64,000 nucleotides of DNA from a virus. Its lineage: Duplodnaviria; Caudoviricetes. Under the pieces are notes generated by a model, which did not search any database, was not told the origin of the DNA, and saw only the letters and a program-made list of their open reading frames with translations. Shown here in pieces: positions 17,590 to 60,977 of the stretch. Position 1 is the first letter of the stretch. Each line of letters opens with the position of its first letter. The stretch spans positions 1 to 64,000 of IMG/VR virus record IMGVR_UViG_3300029288_005816. One strand, written 5' to 3'. Both the position numbers and the translations under genes were made by a program.

Positions 17590-17763
17590 ATGGGAAGAAA
17601 AAAACTAACACAGGAAGAAAAAAGGCAAATATTAACCATTCACCTTCCAAACGAACTTTTCGTAAAATTTGAAAAGTTAAATGTAAAAAATAAATCTAAG
17701 TTTTTTAATTGGTTATTGGAAGAATATTTTAACGAATTAAGCAAAAAAAATAACTATGTCTAA
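17590..17763 (+). CDS. small RHH-like protein (57 aa, not in ORF track)
   Basis: MGRKKL...ILTIHLPNELFVKF...NKSKFFNWLLEEYF; overlaps endonuclease start. Confidence 0.6.
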   Translation: MGRKKLTQEEKRQILTIHLPNELFVKFEKLNVKNKSKFFNWLLEEYFNELSKKNNYV

Positions 17764-18949
17764 TAAATATAAAACAGAAAAGTTTATTAAAAGAGCCATA
17801 GAAATTCATGGAAATAAATATAATTATTCTTTTGTAAATTACATAAATTCAAGAACAAAAGTAAAAATAATTTGTTTGGAACATGGTGTTTTTGAACAAG
17901 AAATTGGAGTTCATTTAAAAGGAAGTGGGTGTGCTAAATGTAGTTTTGAGAAATCAAGATGTTCAAGTAGAAACTTTATAGACAAGGCGAATGTAATTCA
18001 CAATAGCAAATATGATTATTCATTGGTTAATTATGTAAATAATAAAACTAAAGTTAAAATAATTTGTCCAATTCATGGAGTTTTTGAAATGATTCCCAAC
18101 GCTCACTTATGTGGTCAAGGTTGTTCAAAATGCCGCTATGAAAATGTCTCAAAAAGATTTACTATGACATTCAATGAGTTTATTGACAAAGCCAATAAAA
18201 TACACAAAAACAAGTATGATTATTCTTTAGTTTCTTTAAATTTACAAAATAAAATTAAAATAATTTGTCCTATACATGGAATTTTCGAACAAAAGCCAGG
18301 AAGTCATCTATTTGGACAAGGTTGCCCAACTTGCGGTGGCAGTAAAAAATTGAACAAAGAGTTTTTTATTAAGTCTTCTATTAAAATACACGGAAATAAA
18401 TATGATTATTCTTTGGTAGATTACAAAAACAATCGTACAGCGGTTGAAATTATATGTCCAAAGCATGGCGTGTTTAAACAAACCGCAAAAAAACATATTA
18501 CTAGAAAGCAGGGGTGTCCAATGTGTAGAAATTCCAAAGGGGAAAATATTCTGTTCAATCTATTCACAAAAAACAAAATTAAATTTACCCCACAAAAAAA
18601 ATTTAGTGAATGCAAATCAATAAATCTTCTTCCATTCGATTTTTATTTAGATGAATTTAATTGTTGTATTGAGTTTCATGGTTTACAGCATTTTCAATCA
18701 ATCAAAGTATTTGGAGCAGAAGAAAAATTTATTTATTTACAAAAAAAAGATAAAATAAAAGAAAAATACTGTGAAAACAATAATATTTCATTGTTAATAA
18801 TATTTGATAAGTGTACGGAATTCAAAAAACTGTATTTTGTGGATTTATTTAATAATACAAACGAATATATAAAAAACATTATAATAAACAAAAACAACAT
18901 GTCTCAAGTAACCCCCGAAGAGTATAATGATTTTAAATCATCTTTTTAA
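17756..18949 (+). CDS. free-standing endonuclease with four DUF723-like zinc repeats and C-terminal PD-(D/E)xK/Vsr-like domain
   Basis: 4x KYDYS..Y..KVKIICPIHGxFEQ..HL.GxGCxxC; LPFDFYL..CIEFHGLQHF. Confidence 0.8.
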   Translation: MSNKYKTEKFIKRAIEIHGNKYNYSFVNYINSRTKVKIICLEHGVFEQEIGVHLKGSGCAKCSFEKSRCSSRNFIDKANVIHNSKYDYSLVNYVNNKTKVKIICPIHGVFEMIPNAHLCGQGCSKCRYENVSKRFTMTFNEFIDKANKIHKNKYDYSLVSLNLQNKIKIICPIHGIFEQKPGSHLFGQGCPTCGGSKKLNKEFFIKSSIKIHGNKYDYSLVDYKNNRTAVEIICPKHGVFKQTAKKHITRKQGCPMCRNSKGENILFNLFTKNKIKFTPQKKFSECKSINLLPFDFYLDEFNCCIEFHGLQHFQSIKVFGAEEKFIYLQKKDKIKEKYCENNNISLLIIFDKCTEFKKLYFVDLFNNTNEYIKNIIINKNNMSQVTPEEYNDFKSSF

Positions 18950-47999: not shown

Positions 48000-49139
48000 A
48001 TGATATTAACTGAAAAAACACAAATAAAGATAAACCCCAAAAATTTTAAGTATTATCAAAAATTGCACTATACTCCAATAGTTGGCGAAATGTTGGACGT
48101 TTTTGTTAAAGATTTAACAAAGTGTAGTTCTGCATTAGTTAAAATAGAATGTGACATTTGCCACTATGTTAAAATCATGAAATATGAAAATTATTACAAT
48201 AACACCAAAAAATATGGGTATTATTCTTGTAATGGTAAATGTTCAAAAAATAAATTAAAAAAAACTTGTAAGGAGCGATATGGTGATGAACATTTTTTTA
48301 AATGTAATACTTTTTTAGAAAAAAAAGAAAAAACATGCCGTACAAAATATGATGTTAATAATTATACAAAAAGTGATATCATTAAAGAAAAGTCAAAGCA
48401 AACAAAAAAAAATAAATATAATGATGAAAATTATAACAACAGAGAAAAGGCTAAAAAAACTTGCATAAAACTATATGGCGTTGACCACCCTTCTAAATTA
48501 AGTGACTTTGGCAATAAAGTTAAATGCATTTTGTTGAATAAGTATGGAATTGAAAACTATAATAATCAAGCTAAAGCTATAAAAACAAGCATAGAAAAGT
48601 ATGGGGTTGCACACTCATCACAATATTTTAAAGTAAAAGCTAAAAAGGAATCAACAAATATAAAAAGATATGGGTTTAAATCTGCTTTACAAAATGAGGA
48701 TGTAAAAAAGAAAACACTAAAAACGAATATAAAAAGGTATGGTGTTAATTGTCCAATGCAAAACCCGAATATATTTCTAAAACAGCAAAAGTCATCGTAT
48801 GTAATCAAAATTCATGCTGAAACTGGTTTATATTACAGAGGTACATATGAAAAAGATTTTTTAGATATGTGTCATATTAAAAGCATTCCAATACAACAAG
48901 GTAAAAGAATAAAGTACATAAACAATAATAAACATCATTATTATTTTTCTGATTTTTATTTAATGGGGCACAATATGATTATTGAAATTAAATCATCATA
49001 TACTTTTAAAAAAATGTATGCCCTAAATATAATAAAAAGAGATGCTGCAATAAAAAAAGGCTATAAATTTATTTTTATAATAAACAAAGATTATACTGAA
49101 TTTTTAAATATTGTAAAAATTCCTTCTAACATTAATTAG
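48000..49139 (+). CDS. free-standing endonuclease with KYG repeats and C-terminal PD-(D/E)xK domain
   Basis: Multiple KYG repeats; GTYEKDF..YFSDFYL..IIEIKS. Confidence 0.75.
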   Translation: MILTEKTQIKINPKNFKYYQKLHYTPIVGEMLDVFVKDLTKCSSALVKIECDICHYVKIMKYENYYNNTKKYGYYSCNGKCSKNKLKKTCKERYGDEHFFKCNTFLEKKEKTCRTKYDVNNYTKSDIIKEKSKQTKKNKYNDENYNNREKAKKTCIKLYGVDHPSKLSDFGNKVKCILLNKYGIENYNNQAKAIKTSIEKYGVAHSSQYFKVKAKKESTNIKRYGFKSALQNEDVKKKTLKTNIKRYGVNCPMQNPNIFLKQQKSSYVIKIHAETGLYYRGTYEKDFLDMCHIKSIPIQQGKRIKYINNNKHHYYFSDFYLMGHNMIIEIKSSYTFKKMYALNIIKRDAAIKKGYKFIFIINKDYTEFLNIVKIPSNIN

Positions 49140-55739: not shown

Positions 55740-56891
55740 ATGGAAAAATTAACAACAAAAGAGTTTATTGAAAAAGCTCAAAAAATTCATGGAGATAAAT
55801 TTGATTACTCATTGGTTAAATATGTAAACAACAAAATAAAAGTAAAAATTATTTGCAAAGAGCACGGAGAGTTTGAACAACAACCGTCAACTCATTTACT
55901 GGGTCGTAGCGGATGTAAAAAATGCCATATAAATTCAATACGTAGCAATACGGAAGAATTTATACAAAAAGCGAAAGATATTCATGGAGATAAGTGTGAT
56001 TATTCATTGGTCGAATATGTTGGTAGCAAAGTAAAAGTAAAAATAATTTGTAAAGAACACGGGATATTTGAGCAAACTCCAGTCATGCACATGGCAGGAC
56101 AAAATTGCCCCAAATGTTCAATAGCTGCTAAATTTACTCAAAAGAAATTCGTAGAAAAAGCAAAAGCCATTCACGGAGATAAATATGATTATTCAGAAAC
56201 TATATATAATGGAGCAGAACATAGTGTAAAAATATTTTGTAAAAAATGTAATAATACTTTTGTACAGGTCGCATCTTCCCATATGAAAGGATGGGGATGT
56301 AATGAATGTTCAAAAAAAGCCCACACATTATCTGTAGAAGAATTTATTAACAGAGCCATTAAAAAACATGGTGATAAATATGATTATTCGAGTGTTAACT
56401 ATAAAAGAATGGATGTTAAAGTTGATATTTTTTGTAAAAAATGCAAAAAATATTTTCAACAAACTCCGCACAATCATATGTTTTATGGATGTAAGAATTG
56501 CTCTTCTTCCGACGAGTCAAAAGGAGAAAAAGAAATAAAAAATTTTTTGGAAAAATTAAACATTTCATTTATACAACAAAAAATGTTTGATGATTGTAAA
56601 AATATAAATAAATTGCCCTTTGATTTCTACTTACCACATTTTAACACGTGTATAGAATTTGATGGAAAGCAACACTTTAAACCCATTGGACATTGGGGCG
56701 GTGAAGATGGGTTAAAATCTATACAAAAAAGAGATAAAATAAAAACAGAATATTGTAAATTAAACAATATTCCACTTATTAGGATTTCTTATAAAGATAA
56801 TATTGAATATATTTTAAATAAGACGCTTCAAAATTTCGGCTGTCATCCTGGCGTCATCGACTCCACGATGCATAACACCATCAAATTCTAA
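55740..56891 (+). CDS. free-standing endonuclease with DUF723-like repeats and PD-(D/E)xK/Vsr-like domain
   Basis: 4x HGDKYDYS repeats; LPFDFYL..CIEFDGKQHF. Confidence 0.8.
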   Translation: MEKLTTKEFIEKAQKIHGDKFDYSLVKYVNNKIKVKIICKEHGEFEQQPSTHLLGRSGCKKCHINSIRSNTEEFIQKAKDIHGDKCDYSLVEYVGSKVKVKIICKEHGIFEQTPVMHMAGQNCPKCSIAAKFTQKKFVEKAKAIHGDKYDYSETIYNGAEHSVKIFCKKCNNTFVQVASSHMKGWGCNECSKKAHTLSVEEFINRAIKKHGDKYDYSSVNYKRMDVKVDIFCKKCKKYFQQTPHNHMFYGCKNCSSSDESKGEKEIKNFLEKLNISFIQQKMFDDCKNINKLPFDFYLPHFNTCIEFDGKQHFKPIGHWGGEDGLKSIQKRDKIKTEYCKLNNIPLIRISYKDNIEYILNKTLQNFGCHPGVIDSTMHNTIKF

Positions 56892-57362
56892 ACCCAACTG
56901 CTTAAGTGCATTTGATACACTTGTAGATGTCTTTTCTCCTCTTTTAAAAGCATACCATTCTTTAAGGTTAAAATGTGTTTTTCCAAAGGGATATTTTATT
57001 TTTTTTTCATAACATTCTGATTCTAAAATAATTCTATCATAGTCTCCCCAACTAAACCACATGCGTCGGTCACTTTGATACTCATCGACCAAAATTTTGC
57101 ATGCCTTCTTAAAAGATATTCCTTCTTTATCTACTAATTCTTGGGTGATGGTAGTTAACTTTGTGCAAAACGGACTTATTTCGGAAAACTGCGGTTTAAT
57201 AATTATGCTTCTTGACCCTATTGTTTCTTTTGAAAAATAGTCGACTTGTGCGATACCGATTTCAATTATTTCTTTTGACATTCCTACTGGAATTGGCGAC
57301 ATCCAACAGCAAGCCTCGACATCAATTACTAAAACGAAAGTGTTAATTTTTTCTTTTCTCAT
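56814..57362 (-). CDS. DEDDh 3'-5' exonuclease (ERI-1/KapD-like)
   Basis: IDVEACC, EIIEIG, SWGDYD, HRGVDDA. Confidence 0.88.
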   Translation of the reverse strand: MRKEKINTFVLVIDVEACCWMSPIPVGMSKEIIEIGIAQVDYFSKETIGSRSIIIKPQFSEISPFCTKLTTITQELVDKEGISFKKACKILVDEYQSDRRMWFSWGDYDRIILESECYEKKIKYPFGKTHFNLKEWYAFKRGEKTSTSVSNALKQLGLEFDGVMHRGVDDARMTAEILKRLI

Positions 57363-57918
57363 AAACTTTTATATATTTTGGAGGTACTTCATCTGTAAGA
57401 TAAACATTGTTATCTGTCTTATAAAATTTATATCCCTCATTGCACATTTGTTTTGCTTCTATCACCAATACTACTGATTCAACACCTTTTTGGTGTCTTG
57501 ACCCTGTGTCTTTTGCTTTATTCATATTTTCTTCTGAATATAAATGAACATGATGTCTATTCATTTTTTTAAGCCCTTCTTTCATAATAGAAGGCATAAA
57601 TCTTGGAGCTGTGCCATGATATAATTTAAATGGAGGAATAATAGCTGATAATTGCAAATCCACTTCTATTGAGTGCCCCTGATTTGCTTTTATAAGCTTT
57701 TTATCATCACTAAATTTAAATCTTTGTTTATCAGAAGTTTTTACAACTTCTTCTAAATCTTCAAATGTGAATTCTATTTTGTTTTGAGATTTTTTTATAA
57801 GTAAATCTACATCTGCCCATCCATTTTTATCCAATATTATTCCAATAGAAGATGGATTGTGCCGCAACACATAAGATAAGTGTTTGCTAATTTTTGTTAT
57901 TTTTTCTTTATAAATCAT
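57343..57918 (-). CDS. kptA: RNA 2'-phosphotransferase Tpt1/KptA
   Basis: ISKHLSYVLRH, DKQRF, ANQGHS, LYHGT, RHHVHL, NNVYLT. Confidence 0.93.
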   Translation of the reverse strand: MIYKEKITKISKHLSYVLRHNPSSIGIILDKNGWADVDLLIKKSQNKIEFTFEDLEEVVKTSDKQRFKFSDDKKLIKANQGHSIEVDLQLSAIIPPFKLYHGTAPRFMPSIMKEGLKKMNRHHVHLYSEENMNKAKDTGSRHQKGVESVVLVIEAKQMCNEGYKFYKTDNNVYLTDEVPPKYIKVYEKRKN

Positions 57919-57958
57919 AATGGCAAAAATACACAAAAATTATTAAATAAAAAAATTT

Positions 57959-58186
57959 TTAAGATATAAAATGATTATATAAGCCAATCGGATTTTGATT
58001 TGGTGCCAAACCAGAAACTTGCCCAGTTGCATCTTTTTTAGTATTCTTAATAATAGAACAGTCAATATTAATATCTTCAGAAATACTCTCTCCATTAATA
58101 GAAATTTGTTTATTCTTTAGTCTAGCTTTGATATCCTGGCTAAATAATCCTTGTTGTTTTAATATTTCTGATAATTTTATTAACAT
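57959..58186 (-). CDS. hypothetical protein
   Basis: Operonic ORF. Confidence 0.55.
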   Translation of the reverse strand: MLIKLSEILKQQGLFSQDIKARLKNKQISINGESISEDINIDCSIIKNTKKDATGQVSGLAPNQNPIGLYNHFIS

Positions 58187-58201
58187 ATATCTTGGTTTAA
58201 T

Positions 58202-58387
58202 TTAAAATGGTAACATTTCTTTTTTATAAAAAGTCAATTGTTTCATTTTATTTAAAGTAATAAATTTTTTATTCATCCAATAACCTTTTGTGTAATTTAA
58301 AATAGTTAATTTAATTTGCCTACCAAATTTAGAATATAATTTTTTATTTTCGAAATAATACCCTTGAAACTCTTTTATAAAAACCAT
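58202..58387 (-). CDS. hypothetical protein
   Basis: Operonic ORF next to array edge. Confidence 0.55.
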   Translation of the reverse strand: MVFIKEFQGYYFENKKLYSKFGRQIKLTILNYTKGYWMNKKFITLNKMKQLTFYKKEMLPF

Positions 58388-58410
58388 ATTCTATACTTTA
58401 AAATTATGAT

Positions 58411-58460
58411 AATTAACACAATAAGATATAGACTAAAGTGCGATTATCCACGAGTTATGT
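58411..58460 (+). repeat. degenerate attC0 (left array border)
   Basis: R' GTTATGTGCC at 58454 complements GGCACATAAC at 58737; left arm folds poorly. Confidence 0.45.
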
Positions 58461-58464
58461 GCCA

Positions 58465-58719
58465 TTAACCGATAACATCGTGAATTGACGGCACTCTTGG
58501 TAATAGCTTCCGCATCAATGAGAAAAAACTTCTGTATTCCTCAATCTGCTTTTCCTGTTGTTGAAGTTTGCTTTCCAAATCAACTATGTGTTTGTGTGCC
58601 AAAAACCATTCATTCAATTTACCACTTTCGTCTTTTGAAGTAATGTGTTTTTTTAATTCAGCATACTTGTCGGCACACTCTTTTTTCCCCATTGCTGCTC
58701 CGTGGTCATAATAAGCCAT
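58465..58719 (-). CDS. cassette 1 hypothetical protein
   Basis: ORF enclosed by complementary core sites. Confidence 0.7.
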   Translation of the reverse strand: MAYYDHGAAMGKKECADKYAELKKHITSKDESGKLNEWFLAHKHIVDLESKLQQQEKQIEEYRSFFSLMRKLLPRVPSIHDVIG

Positions 58720-58739
58720 ATCTTTCTAAGTTTAACGGC

Positions 58740-58836
58740 ACATAACAAGGTATATATGTTATACGCCAATGAAGTGTCGTACTTAATTTTAAAACTTTAT
58801 GGTCAGGCGTACAACACATATACCCAACCGTTATAG
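58740..58836 (+). repeat. attC1
   Basis: TAAC-AA-[19-nt arm]...[19-nt arm]-CAACC-GTTA; arms pair 17/19. Confidence 0.85.
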
Positions 58837-58853
58837 GTAATAAAATTTACTAC

Positions 58854-59078
58854 CTACATTCCAATACTTTCATCATATTTAAAGCTAATCAATATAATCG
58901 GTAAAAAAACAATTATTATTACCGTCCAAAAAATTAACAATATACCCATCATCCCACCAATGAAATATTTACCAAATAACGTAAATTCCATTTCATCAAT
59001 GAACTCAAAAAACATACTTTTCCAATAATGTTTGATAATGTTCCAACTTCGTAATAATTGTTTTTTTATAAATTTCAT
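58854..59078 (-). CDS. cassette 2 membrane protein
   Basis: One TM segment; enclosed by GTTATAGGTA/TACCTATAAC. Confidence 0.7.
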   Translation of the reverse strand: MKFIKKQLLRSWNIIKHYWKSMFFEFIDEMEFTLFGKYFIGGMMGILLIFWTVIIIVFLPIILISFKYDESIGM

Positions 59079-59098
59079 AACCCGTAAATTTTACATAC

Positions 59099-59194
59099 CT
59101 ATAACAAAGTGTATAAGTAATGTGGCTAAATTAATTTATCTATAAGTTGAAAGTATGTGCAAAGCCACACTACTCATACACTCAACCGTTAGTA
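59099..59194 (+). repeat. attC2
   Basis: TAAC-AAA-[GTGTATAAGTAATGTGGCT]...[AGCCACACTACTCATACAC]-TCAACC-GTTA; 17/19. Confidence 0.88.
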
Positions 59195-59200
59195 GTAATT

Positions 59201-59407
59201 TTATTTACAATCAAATTTACTATCAAACCACTTATTAAAGTCCTCATATACGCTATTTTCGCCATCCTCACCATAATCAGCGCCTAATTGAACTCCTGCT
59301 GAAAATGCTCTTTGCAAATCATCCTTAGTAAAACTACTACTAACATCAGATATATTCAATTTTTTATCTGAGTCATCAACTCCTATGTTTTTATTTACAT
59401 CTTTCAT
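59201..59407 (-). CDS. cassette 3 hypothetical protein (start lies inside attC3)
   Basis: N-terminus KLNISDVSSS encoded by attC arm. Confidence 0.7.
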   Translation of the reverse strand: MKDVNKNIGVDDSDKKLNISDVSSSFTKDDLQRAFSAGVQLGADYGEDGENSVYEDFNKWFDSKFDCK

Positions 59408-59465
59408 TTTATTTAATTTTTGTGTTATTAATTAAGAAAACTGAATATATCTGTAACCGTTATAA
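59338..59465 (+). repeat. attC3
   Basis: 12-bp perfect arms CAGATATATTCA/TGAATATATCTG. Confidence 0.8.
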
Positions 59466-59480
59466 AACATTAAAACGATT

Positions 59481-59614
59481 TTATAACAAAGTATATAAAT
59501 AATGGTGATGTGGAGTCGAACCACCTACTCGAAGTCTCACCTGAAATTTAGGACTCGAACCTACTACTCGAAGTCTCACCGAACCACCACTATTCATATA
59601 CTCAACCGTTATAA
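59481..59614 (+). repeat. attC4 of ORF-less cassette; loop contains a 30-nt duplication
   Basis: Arms 15/17; units at 59512-59541 and 59551-59580. Confidence 0.85.
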
Positions 59615-59923
59615 TCAAAACTTCCTCCAGTCTAAATATTGTAGCTTTATCTCATTTGAGAAAAATTTAATGTCATTATCATAATCTTTTCGATTTCTTG
59701 AATCCCAAATTAAAACACCACCAGTTATAATAATACCATTTACCATTAATCTATCTCCCTTAACAATTTCAATCTGTAAGCCATTAAATTTTTCTCTTAA
59801 ACGAGTTCGTATTTCCAATTGATATTCCGTCAATTTATCCGTACTGATTATAACATCAGATATAACCAATTTAGGTTTCTGTGATTTAATCAAGTTAAGT
59901 TTTTCTAATAATCTTTTTATCAT
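59615..59923 (-). CDS. cassette 5 hypothetical protein (start inside attC5)
   Basis: KLVISDVIIS encoded by attC arm. Confidence 0.7.
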   Translation of the reverse strand: MIKRLLEKLNLIKSQKPKLVISDVIISTDKLTEYQLEIRTRLREKFNGLQIEIVKGDRLMVNGIIITGGVLIWDSRNRKDYDNDIKFFSNEIKLQYLDWRKF

Positions 59924-59979
59924 ATTTTAAGTTTTTGTATTTCAATTCCTAAACTGGTTATATCTGAGAACCGTTAGCA
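59848..59979 (+). repeat. attC5
   Basis: Arms CAGATATAACCAATTTAGG/CCTAAACTGGTTATATCTG 18/19. Confidence 0.85.
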
Positions 59980-60213
59980 ACAATGTTTTATGACCATAAC
60001 ACTTCCATATAAACCAACCGCCTCAGTAAGCATACTTTTAAAAAGCCTACATTCGTTGCTATTATAGCCTTTTTTTGCTACATAATTATCTAGTTTTTGT
60101 TGAAAGTCATCAGGCAATTGACTTTTTAAAAATTCCTGTGCATCTTTCCAAAAATCAACACTGTTGCTAACATCACGTATAGCACATTGCTGTTTGTTCT
60201 TCGTATTTTTCAT
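59974..60213 (-). CDS. cassette 6 hypothetical protein (stop in core site, start inside attC6)
   Basis: QQCAIRDVSNS; TAA is the complement of the TTA in GTTAGCAACA. Confidence 0.7.
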   Translation of the reverse strand: MKNTKNKQQCAIRDVSNSVDFWKDAQEFLKSQLPDDFQQKLDNYVAKKGYNSNECRLFKSMLTEAVGLYGSVMVIKHCC

Positions 60214-60287
60214 CGTAAATAATTTTTAAGTTTGTAATTCTAATTAAGTTATACATAAACAACGTTCCATACACGCAGCCATTATAG
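60165..60287 (+). repeat. attC6 (partly degenerate, R' = ATT)
   Basis: TGTTGCTAAC complements GTTAGCAACA; imperfect arms. Confidence 0.65.
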
Positions 60288-60297
60288 GTAATAAAAT

Positions 60298-60444
60298 TTA
60301 CTTGCCATAAATCTTTGTTAAACCTTCTTGTTCTCTTTTAGATTTACATTTATCACAATATTTCATCGTCCAAGCAGTTCCCTTGCTTTGAATAAGCCAT
60401 TCACTTGTTGCTTTTTTTCCACAATTACATTTTCCGTGCATCAT
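60298..60444 (-). CDS. cassette 7 small zinc-finger-like protein
   Basis: MMHGKCNCG...YCDKC; start placed by analogy with the cassette 2 leader. Confidence 0.55.
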   Translation of the reverse strand: MMHGKCNCGKKATSEWLIQSKGTAWTMKYCDKCKSKREQEGLTKIYGK

Positions 60445-60463
60445 ATCCGTAAATTTTACATAC

Positions 60464-60485
60464 CTATTACGACCAACCGTTATAA
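60464..60485 (+). repeat. collapsed attC7 (arms deleted)
   Basis: TACCTATTAC-GACCAACC-GTTATAA. Confidence 0.65.
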
Positions 60486-60752
60486 ACAAGTTTGTTTAAT
60501 TCTTTCAATTTCACTTTTCATCATTTGTTGTGGCGTATGATATTTTTCACAAATTTCACATTGCCAAGTGCCAGACCCAACAAAAGCAACTGGAATACCA
60601 CAGCAAATTCCAGCGAAAAAATCTAATTTATCATTCGTGTCACAAACCTGGTTTATAATACCAAATAAACTCAATAAAAAGTTTTGTGCTTCTATTTCAG
60701 TTATACAACCTTGTTCAAGGTCTTTTGCTATTTTTAATATTTGTTCTTTCAT
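60480..60752 (-). CDS. cassette 8 hypothetical protein with zinc ribbon (start inside attC8)
   Basis: LLSLFGIINQ; CCG..WQCEIC; stop in core site. Confidence 0.7.
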   Translation of the reverse strand: MKEQILKIAKDLEQGCITEIEAQNFLLSLFGIINQVCDTNDKLDFFAGICCGIPVAFVGSGTWQCEICEKYHTPQQMMKSEIERIKQTCL

Positions 60753-60785
60753 ATCTTTTACTGTGTTTATTTGTAACTATTAGAC
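60653..60785 (+). repeat. attC8 (degenerate cores TAAT/ATTA)
   Basis: Arms CAAATAAACTCAATAAAAA/CTTTTACTGTGTTTATTTG. Confidence 0.65.
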
Positions 60786-60794
60786 ACAATACTA

Positions 60795-60977
60795 CTATAC
60801 TTTTTTATAGATTGAGTTAAAATCCCTATCAGAAATGAATTGTCTTTTGCCTCTGTATAAGTAAAATATCAAATCAGTTCCTCTTTGTTTATTAGTTCCC
60901 TTTTTTATGTTATATTCATTTCCTGTTTGGATATTTTTATATCTTCCAAATTCTCTGATGTTACTAAGTTTTTCCAT
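60795..60977 (-). CDS. hypothetical protein
   Basis: Short ORF continuing the array. Confidence 0.6.
   Translation of the reverse strand: MEKLSNIREFGRYKNIQTGNEYNIKKGTNKQRGTDLIFYLYRGKRQFISDRDFNSIYKKV

Follow-up and report, generated by a model that had tools for sequence, protein, structure and literature searches.

Two cassettes in one phage array share 21 nucleotides at each end and enclose different genes, which raises the question of what the common frame is. A sequence-only reading had taken it for a pre-existing shell in which the cargo was swapped, and hence for a possible snapshot of cassette genesis. In integron arrays, a single family of sites normally accompanies unrelated genes; the origin of the cassettes themselves is, to our knowledge, an open question. 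Here we analyse the array within a window of 64,000 nucleotides, part of a 90.7-kb phage record (IMGVR_UViG_3300029288_005816; 27% GC, 57% complete), together with related sites in other phages and in Bacteroidota chromosomes.

Layout of the array and its shared ends

The array occupies positions 58454–60482, where six conserved hairpins lie between small minus-strand genes. The covariance model R1 finds six sites here and none at other places in the 90.7-kb record. Its features are as follows, with the slash in TAA/C marking the putative exchange point.

58454–60482, minus strand: whole array, with six hairpin sites and one collapsed site, and cassettes B, C, D, empty, E, F and G; by the intergenic layout, its limits are the TAA/C after ORF H and the final TAA/C after ORF B
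58743–58833, minus strand: type 3 hairpin site at the head of cassette B (R1, 81.5 bits); cassette B ends, GTTATGTGCC and GGCACATAAC
58831–58851, minus strand: 3′ shell (trailer) of cassette C, AGTAAATTTTATTACCTATAA on the gene strand, then the C of TAAC
58854–59078, minus strand: ORF C, a 74-aa predicted membrane protein, cargo of cassette 2; no Pfam family
59082–59105, minus strand: 5′ shell (leader) of cassette C, GTTATAGGTATGTAAAATTTACGG, 3 nt upstream of the ATG
59102–59191, minus strand: type 4 hairpin site, which travels with cassette C (R1, 90.9 bits)
59341–59462, minus strand: R1 hairpin with a 73-nt loop in which ORF D has its start codon and first codons; cassette D ends, GTTAGTAGTAGTTTT and AAAATTACTACTAAC
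59459–59487, minus strand: empty cassette, GTTATAAAA-TCGTTTTAATG-TTTTATAAC, with complementary ends and an 11-nt loop
59484–59611, minus strand: R1 hairpin, its long loop containing two tandem tRNA T-arm-like GGTTCGAnTCC units
59851–59976, minus strand: R1 hairpin within which ORF E starts; cassette E ends, GTTATAATCA and TGATTATAAC
60168–60284, minus strand: R1 hairpin (41.4 bits) enclosing the start of ORF F, with the 5′ box TAAT, not TAAC; cassette F ends, GTTAGCAACAGTG and CATTGTTGCTAAC
60282–60302, minus strand: 3′ shell of cassette G, whose internal TAA is the stop codon of ORF G
60298–60444, minus strand: ORF G, 48 aa, Cys-rich and zinc-ribbon-like (CxC...CxxC), cargo of cassette 7
60447–60470, minus strand: 5′ shell of cassette G, GTAATAGGTATGTAAAATTTACGG
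60471–60482, minus strand: collapsed hairpin site to the right of cassette 7, TAACGGTTGGTC, with stem and loop deleted

The 21-mer TTATAGGTAATAAAATTTACT, said to be common to the left ends of both cassettes, occurs exactly at 58831–58851 and 60282–60302, and its right-hand counterpart CCGTAAATTTTACATACCTAT at 59082–59102 and 60447–60467. Each has exactly two copies and none more at up to three mismatches, with shuffled expectations of 0.08 and 0.00. The cargos are indeed unrelated: BLASTP of ORF C against ORF G returned no alignment at E ≤ 100. A single hydrophobic helix is predicted in ORF C. The collapse of the site beside cassette 7 was likewise read correctly, a short TAAC-GGTTGGTC-GTAATAGG at 60482–60463 replacing the hairpin of 90–128 nt that the other cassettes have there. 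The shared flanks are not likely to be an assembly artefact, as both cassettes recur at 100% identity in Logan contigs from other studies (X2 record 3, 58828–59111; X2 record 6, 59466–60764; X3 record 16, 59576–60900). The phage occurs at groundwater and landfill sites (X1–X4). The joints in these assembled contigs have short sides (20–36 nt) separated by unknown letters, so they are taken to show the shell around different cargos and not products of excision.

Searches for known families in this region returned little. No significant Pfam family was found among ten small ORFs, no Rfam family for the window region or the bacterial copies, and no tRNA by ARAGORN, the T-arm-like repeats notwithstanding. 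A blastn search of the array region against cultured phages gave no match, and the 90.7-kb record contains no PF00589 protein (tyrosine recombinase).

Complementary ends and a conserved hairpin

Each of the two 21-mers is an imperfect reverse complement of the other, a feature absent from the sequence-only reading; as inverted repeats, they begin exactly at GTTA and finish at TAAC. Complementary ends of 10–21 bp are present in every cassette of the window array. In each of them, as in integrons, the 5′ end matches the distal box of the cassette's own site in complement, the trace that a circular intermediate would leave. Across 285 viral cassettes, the median end-match score is 11.5 (5.0 in shuffled pairs), a score of at least 9 is reached by 74% (3.8% of shuffled pairs), and the 11th base is a non-Watson–Crick position in 274 of 279 cassettes. 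In bacterial cassettes the ends are built alike and keep their orientation to the hairpin, in a sample that stays at six because a strict TAAC...GTTA detector found no more consecutive sites in seven added bacterial regions. Since the ends are complementary and start at the GTTA/TAAC boxes, the shell is best read as the outer stem of one split hairpin site. The two shared ends are thus most likely the halves of a single folded recombination site, not evidence of one cargo swap. Nothing shows such a swap between cassettes 2 and 7, all cassettes here having complementary ends, and the proposed snapshot of cassette genesis finds no support as it was put, since several end types besides this shell also recur with different cargos.

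The hairpin consists of TAAC, a GGTT bulge, a 20-bp stem, a loop and GTTA. Its covariation is extensive, with 98.9% of cells paired and compensatory changes in eight pairs, and G·T pairs are fixed at three stem positions, which implies that one strand folds. The family is present in more than 100 viral contigs. Model R1, built from phage sites only, matches arrays in Bacteroidota chromosomes, finds the hairpin in 67 of 101 sampled Flavobacteriaceae genomes and also matches the cultured flavobacterial Polaribacter phage P12002L, on the gene strand. A 17-mer search of bacterial genome contigs gave 120 matches, mostly by chance, with the hairpin in only 29. Phage genes lie on the folding strand in 386 flanks and on the opposite strand in 25, whereas the genes of bacterial arrays lie on the strand opposite to the folding strand.

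A recombinase in relatives and putative exchange at TAA/C

In Flavobacterium cheonanense, a tyrosine recombinase is encoded 1 kb from the first site of the chromosomal array; it scores 226 bits on NF040815, above the cut-off, and 204 bits on TIGR02249, below the cut-off of 265. Four of the five jumbo phages with these hairpins encode a recombinase of about 270 aa, and the one that was compared with the bacterial enzyme is 48% identical to it. Three of the four phage genes have upstream of them a hairpin with a strong score and a small cassette with ...TAAC at its end; a TATAWTATAT-like sequence follows directly, some 55 nt ahead of the start codon. In the fourth phage (L285), whose recombinase has 271 aa, the gene is preceded only by a partial model match. 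The array-adjacent recombinases reach 157–204 bits on TIGR02249 (cut-off 265), aligning to positions 2–180 and 238–315 with no counterpart of 181–237, and do not qualify as integron integrases with the IntI-specific additional domain. Their closest solved structure is archaeal XerA. A short Xer-like tyrosine recombinase, encoded by related phages and by hosts, is the probable enzyme.

A database search with the shell ends reached far beyond the window. Among the IMG/VR matches listed, the shell frames at least 36 unrelated cargo families in at least 110 cassettes of other phages. It comprises a 26-nt leader up to the ATG and a 25-nt trailer, with junctions at the start and stop codons, so that the shell does supply the leader and stop region, as had been proposed; the stop is the shell's own TAG or TAA in 31 of the 36 cargo families listed, all 31 in one reading frame. 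The two halves are coupled in 113 of the 145 testable left-shell matches listed, and tandem shell cassettes, with a hairpin between both halves, appear in one case only (L402). The type-4 hairpin precedes the shell in 64 of the 109 listed cassettes with enough upstream sequence to class, another hairpin being joined to it in 45, and nine of the cargo families listed sit behind type-4 as well as other hairpins. These other hairpins and dual families weigh against the split-site reading and imply that the hairpin interior is exchangeable or that recombination also occurs within shells. A relative of ORF C in contig L143 has the same shell (100% identity) around a cargo of 54% amino-acid identity. 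Relatives of ORF G exist both with and without shells; those outside cassettes have a longer C-terminus, which the shell junction truncates, adding K and a stop. By sequence comparison, this junction fits capture into a frame. Microhomology at its breakpoints amounts at most to GAT/ATG at the 5′ end and GG at the 3′ end, too short to support an argument.

On balance, we think it probable that the shell is the split outer stem of an integron-like site of Bacteroidota and their phages, in an array without an integrase, with exchange at TAA/C. Read along the folding strand, here the gene strand, a cassette would consist of a hairpin site and then a gene, and the anatomy and flank linkage suggest that cassettes are exchanged by site-specific recombination at TAA/C, with the exchange point 5′ of the hairpin. 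Once excised as a circle, a cassette would have its final bases on one side of the hairpin and the bases following GTTA on the other, paired with each other into an outer stem; integration would part the two strands and so leave each integrated cassette with complementary ends. The two 21-mers would form the sides of an outer stem of unusual length, in which a T bulge with a G·T pair lies between two runs of 10 bp, and the predicted circle junction reads ...ATTACCTATAA/C-GGTTGAGTG..., with the shell halves on either side of the type-4 hairpin. This stem would belong to one widespread cassette family, mostly with hairpin type 4, in which the same stretch doubles as the leader up to the ATG and the stop-bearing trailer. 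Cassettes 2 and 7 would be members of that family with different genes, the inner hairpin of cassette 7 having been deleted.

Flank linkage places the crossover 5′ of the hairpin: same-type hairpins share the downstream and not the upstream flank in 156 pairs, with the reverse in 14. Against this reading, both flanks differ in most same-type pairs (1194). In its support, metagenome contigs branch at cassette boundaries, and the JGI metagenome contig L309 matches the window at 100% identity over 57602–59191 (1590 nt) and departs from it precisely at the TAAC of the type-4 hairpin; such TAAC breakpoints are taken from assemblies, in which repeats can also cause breaks or joins. When reconstituted, the circle junction of cassette C forms one continuous hairpin at −27.3 kcal/mol, compared with −16.1 kcal/mol in the array context.

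Against the split-site reading stand the lack of a recombinase in the record and the failure of IntI1 to recombine a related small hairpin of Polaribacter phage P12002L (PMC9892861). The shell is also better conserved than its cargo, which argues for a sequence-specific role beyond pairing, and the location of phage genes on the folding strand, unlike in bacterial arrays, makes an RNA-level role equally possible. That the shell is itself an expression frame in RNA is a tentative alternative that we consider unlikely. Leader and trailer would then be portable, paired untranslated regions closing small mRNAs into stems for stability, processing or translation control, and cargos would be shuffled by general recombination with the identical shells as short homologies, as in the PeSL of T4-type phages; such a frame may coexist with site-specific recombination. 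In addition to the gene strand and the conservation of the shell, this reading accommodates the G·U compatibility of every wobble pair on the mRNA strand, a leader that stops at the ATG, a trailer that contains the stop, identical shell and cargo behind differing hairpins, and the fold of full-length cassette C, in which the shell stem is closed. It is at odds with the bacterial arrays, which share the end design and polarity yet have their genes on the other strand, and with ends that start exactly at the GTTA/TAAC boxes beside a recombinase-associated site. Moreover, as the two shells of a gene are in inverted orientation, recombination between them would flip that gene in place instead of moving it. 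A promoter scan, with Bacteroidota promoters outside its scope, found no sigma-70-type excess (10 sigma-70-like sites versus 15.7 expected) and no terminator-like site. A regulatory repeat of purely PeSL-like kind, without site-specific recombination, was dropped in view of the recombinase linkage and the general complementary ends.

Other readings concern how shell and cargo came together. It is rather doubtful that the trailer–hairpin–leader of about 135 nt is a portable cassette-forming module, with the 36 families and their common stop frame as a record of repeated ORF-precise genesis, perhaps by way of processed transcripts. Placed beside any ORF, on one flank, and cut at TAA/C, such a module would yield a leader ending at the ATG and a stop-bearing trailer. 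Very doubtful is the sequence-only model, in which an empty shell hairpin repeatedly takes new DNA into its loop and cargos are swapped. The empty cassette in the array, with paired ends and similar copies in contigs L038 and L116, where its arms covary, would suit this model, as would the truncation of the ancestral C-terminus of ORF G and the termination of 31 of the 36 listed families by the shell itself; however, IMG/VR holds no empty copy of this shell (loop 0–30 nt), the one frame of all 31 would need strong selection if insertion were random, and empty cassettes may equally be deletion remnants. Finally, a miniature transposon with 21-bp terminal inverted repeats, or chance or an assembly artefact, is extremely improbable. 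The cassettes do resemble short segments between terminal inverted repeats, but the repeats abut conserved hairpins on both sides, these flanks being sites and not target-site duplications, and there is no conserved interior (36 unrelated ORF families); a transposon or MITE was rejected on these grounds. Against chance or artefact, the expectation is at most 0.08, and more than 100 independent contigs and independent runs repeat the arrangement.

The split-site reading would mean that large virulent-type Bacteroidota phages have an integron-like gene-exchange system in common with their hosts and in some cases encode its enzyme, which bears on the spread of phage accessory genes. One leader and trailer pair around at least 36 unrelated small genes offers abundant data on how cassettes arise, and the relatives of ORF G outside cassettes make the capture junction mappable for one cargo. 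The Xer-like phage recombinase and this array together could serve as a simple test system for the attachment of sites to genes. The portable-module reading, if true, would give direct access to the problem of how integron cassettes originate.

Comparison with known systems

The nearest known systems are integrons, above all the sedentary chromosomal ones whose attC sites are homogeneous, and CALINs, that is, integrase-less attC clusters. In an integron cassette, the 5′ core site is complementary to the inverse core over 7 bp. The attC boxes are RYYYAAC / GTTRRRY, and the site forms an imperfect hairpin with an unpaired spacer, a conserved inner box and a variable terminal structure; genes lie on the top strand, and the folded bottom strand is recombined.

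Like integrons, the arrays described here have single-gene cassettes, imperfect AAC...GTT hairpins, unpaired spacers, variable loops, strand-specific folding, stop codons that often lie within the site, and many unrelated genes per site family; in relatives, a tyrosine recombinase and an attI-like junction lie at one end of the array. The proposal of an integron-like cassette array is supported. The boxes are YTATAAC / GTTATRN in place of RYYYAAC / GTTRRRY, with the architecture and covariation of the site both seen. With six sites within 1.6 kb and no integrase, the locus would be classed as a CALIN, provided that the hairpins count as attC-like. Unlike in integrons, the recombinase of relatives is an Xer-like protein of about 270 aa that scores below the IntI cut-offs, the end complementarity is 10–26 bp with a fixed mismatch at base 11, and phage genes lie on the folding strand, preceded by a site that often encloses the gene start. 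Only the bacterial arrays have the gene strand of integrons.

A literature search found no paper describing this cassette system. Qi et al. (2023; PMC9892861) reported CALINs from virulent phages and described only two attC-like sites of Polaribacter phage P12002L, as CALIN members. One of them, P12002L_attC1, is a related small hairpin that was not recombined by IntI1 (PMC9892861), and its loop equals the TCGTTTTAATG loop of the empty cassette here; the available part of the P12002L account does not discuss the shell, the recombinase or end complementarity.

The PeSL of T4-type phages are direct repeats with a sigma-70 early promoter and a terminator, shuffled by homologous recombination (PMC2839356, PMC4122927). 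The present system resembles them in its small accessory genes, its location in a plastic phage region and its conserved structured repeats with unrelated genes, and differs from them in its inverted-repeat frame on AAC/GTT boxes and in the dedicated recombinase of its relatives.

Strand-specific hairpins between the cassettes

The source IMG/VR virus record comprises 90,754 bp, with 27% GC and an estimated completeness of 57%, and the window, its first 64 kb, encodes phage replication genes and homing endonucleases. All genes at 58.2–61.5 kb lie on the minus strand, and, read on that strand, the intergenic regions of the array share one design, 5′ to 3′: YTATAAC, a GGTT bulge, a ~20-bp stem with its first 9 bp conserved (GRGTRTATG), a 35–100-nt loop, the return arm and T-GTTAT. 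The motif TAACGGTTGRGTRTATG matches at least 118 viral contigs and, among the matches listed, most carry the same hairpin as the window, falling into discrete types. In an alignment of 31 non-redundant copies, pairing is present in 98.9% of cells, as compared with 31–58% when the partner columns were slid, with compensatory changes at 8 pairs and G.T at 3 positions in 27–30 sequences. Since these G.T pairs are fixed, the gene strand of the window is the folding strand. We conclude that the hairpins form a genuine family in which one particular strand folds. When the whole record was searched with a covariance model of the phage copies, only six sites matched, all in the window.

Hairpin sites matching the covariance model
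58743–58833, minus strand: hairpin site
59102–59191, minus strand: hairpin site (type 4), travelling with cassette C
59341–59462, minus strand: hairpin site
59484–59611, minus strand: hairpin site
59851–59976, minus strand: hairpin site
60168–60284, minus strand: hairpin site

In three of these hairpins, the next gene already starts within the loop, which holds its start codon and first codons; this accounts for the recurring D-V-S/I peptides. Within the site 59484–59611, the loop (59500–59590, minus strand) contains a tandem pair of ~37-nt units. Their ends, GGTTCGAGTCC or GGTTCGACTCC, resemble a tRNA T arm, and ACATCACCA comes after the second unit; ARAGORN called no tRNA at these units. Type-2 hairpins of viral loci (for example, L014:5199-5284 and L086) have a loop with a leader-like motif and an ATG opening a 9-codon mini-ORF, MRYFTYTLL, which continues across the 3′ arm to its stop codon, the TAA in GTTATAA.

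The window also contains three homing-endonuclease-like genes (55740–56891, 17756–18949 and 48000–49139, all plus strand; PHROG 559, 681 and 3339). HGDKYDYS modules are repeated in two of the three. One of the genes is 1.5 kb away from the array and adjoins an RNA 2′-phosphotransferase-like gene (57343–57936) and an ERI-1-like exonuclease gene (56814–57362).

One shell around many cargos

Both 21-mers that form the shared ends, or shell, of cassettes C and G occur exactly twice, at the coordinates of the sequence-only reading (expectation at most 0.08), which confirms that observation. With the left 20-mer as query, IMG/VR and the JGI metagenomes gave at least 155 matches; among those listed, 113 have the right shell 190–380 nt upstream, 32 are without it and 10 lie too near a contig end for the test. 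Counting cargos in this database search, as the sequence-only reading had proposed, revealed at least 36 enclosed ORF families (46–106 aa), defined by having no BLASTP link at E ≤ 1e-3 between them. The leader is conserved over 25–27 nt up to the ATG in all anchorable shell cassettes. Among the matches listed, the stop codon is the shell's own TAG or TAA, in a single frame, in 31 of the 36 families, and lies at most 8 nt upstream in the remaining 5. The hairpin before the shell, in listed cassettes with enough upstream sequence, is type 4 in 64/109 and another type in 45/109, with 9 cargo families found behind both. In L356, a relative of this phage, the ORF F cassette comes after a shell cassette in which both the hairpin and the cargo (71 aa) are different. 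In an unbiased sample, further end types were likewise seen repeatedly, with 3–7 different cargos, so that several frames of this kind exist, the shell among them. In contigs L011 and L078, the shell cassette is followed by a hairpin whose loop contains GGAGGTTCGATTCCTC, similar to the T-arm-like units.

Relatives of ORF G (the Cys-rich peptide) in other phages, at 47–67% identity, have neither shell nor hairpin, and their C terminus is longer (...KIYGYTKRAK...). The 3′ shell takes the place of this tail in the window and in contig L144 (81% identity), giving K and a stop codon, a pattern that fits capture of this cargo; the 5′ shell is absent from L144.

The shell: probably one outer stem, split in two

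The two 21-mers are imperfect inverse complements of each other. On the gene strand, cassette C starts with GTTATAGGTATGTAAAATTTACGG and finishes with GTAAATTTTATTACCTATAAC, so that the repeat spans exactly from the GTTA closing the upstream hairpin to the TAAC opening the next. Complementary ends are found in every cassette of the window.

Complementary cassette ends in the window
B: GTTATGTGCC / GGCACATAAC
D: 15 nt
E: 10 nt
F: 13 nt
Empty cassette: 59459–59487

Across 285 viral cassettes, the median end-match score is 11.5, compared with 5.0 for shuffled pairs, and 74% score at least 9, compared with 3.8% of controls. The 11th base is non-Watson–Crick in 274 of 279 cassettes, mostly G opposite T, and the few scorable bacterial cassettes have the same end design. 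The shell fits this design, with 10 bp, a T bulge with G.T, and 10 more bp. Many loci (for example, L074:170-217, L121, L136, L142 and Polaribacter phage P12002L) carry short hairpins of a second class, in which the loop, (T)CGTTTTAATG, is constant and the stems vary with covariation; the CGTTTT...AATG letters of this loop also make up the region around the 11th position in ordinary cassette ends, and their ATG can be a start codon.

Same-type hairpins share the downstream but not the upstream flank 156 times, and the reverse 14 times, which puts the point of exchange on the hairpin's TAAC side. In attC sites, the folded strand is cut at that same side. A phage cassette would consist of a hairpin and the gene behind it, and in the excised circle both shell halves would flank the hairpin, forming its outer stem. 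The computed fold of the reconstituted cassette C junction is one continuous hairpin, at −27.3 kcal/mol as compared with −16.1 in the array context. Over 57602–59191, contig L309 matches the window at 100% identity; from precisely the TAAC of the type-4 hairpin onwards, its sequence differs and is absent from the record. Metagenome contigs from four runs show breaks, branches and pile-ups at the hairpins, where loose ends begin at 59191 and 58833/58834. Such breakpoints support cassette mobility without proving it, as assemblers break and join at repeats as well.

The specific proposal that cargo was swapped within a pre-existing shell, and that the window may capture this step of cassette genesis, is not supported. 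Splitting of an outer stem explains the shell better. The shell is strictly conserved by comparison with its cargo and fits the start and stop codons exactly, so that it may have a second role at the mRNA level.

Relatives in bacteria and phages

Arrays of hairpins matching the phage model also occur in Bacteroidota chromosomes; 67 of 101 sampled Flavobacteriaceae genomes have matches and, with strict filters applied, a single genome has as many as 17 sites. A tyrosine recombinase of Flavobacterium cheonanense, encoded 1 kb from the first hairpin site, scores 226 bits against NF040815 (above cut-off) and 204 bits against TIGR02249 (below the cut-off of 265). A ~270-aa recombinase of the same kind is encoded by four of five jumbo phages with such hairpins, and the one phage protein compared (L285) is 48% identical to the F. 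cheonanense enzyme. The nearest solved relatives of this Xer-like recombinase are archaeal XerA, then IntI4. Directly 5′ of the recombinase gene in three of the four jumbo phages (L284, L286 and L287) are a strong-scoring hairpin and a small cassette, whose last TAAC is followed, ~55 nt before the recombinase start codon, by a TATAWTATAT-like stretch; the sequence after this TAAC is TATATTATATAGG, TATAATATATGTA or TAGTATATATAAG. We regard this stretch as a candidate attI-like site. In the fourth phage, L285, the sequence upstream of the gene matches the model only partially. The 90,754-bp record contains no tyrosine recombinase, and our literature search found no paper on the Xer-like cassette system.

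A Bacteroidales chromosome (L171; G001:C1:5.05-5.11 Mb) has a tandem series of six or more tyrosine recombinase genes (~295 aa) at intervals of ~8 kb, some of which contain an in-frame stop. L170 and L192, binned as a Methanolobus sp. MAG, contain dense arrays of hairpin cassettes of the phage type, in which the genes occupy the folding strand; they are probably phage contigs that were wrongly assigned to an archaeal bin.

The description of the array as integron-like holds, except that it departs from two defining features, the integrase type and the gene strand: in the bacterial hairpin arrays, as in integrons, the genes lie opposite the folding strand. Attachment-site clusters without an integrase are described in virulent phages, including a Polaribacter phage, in PMC9892861, and our covariance model matches that phage, P12002L. 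One of its published sites, which IntI1 reportedly did not recombine, shares the TCGTTTTAATG loop with the empty cassette of the window.
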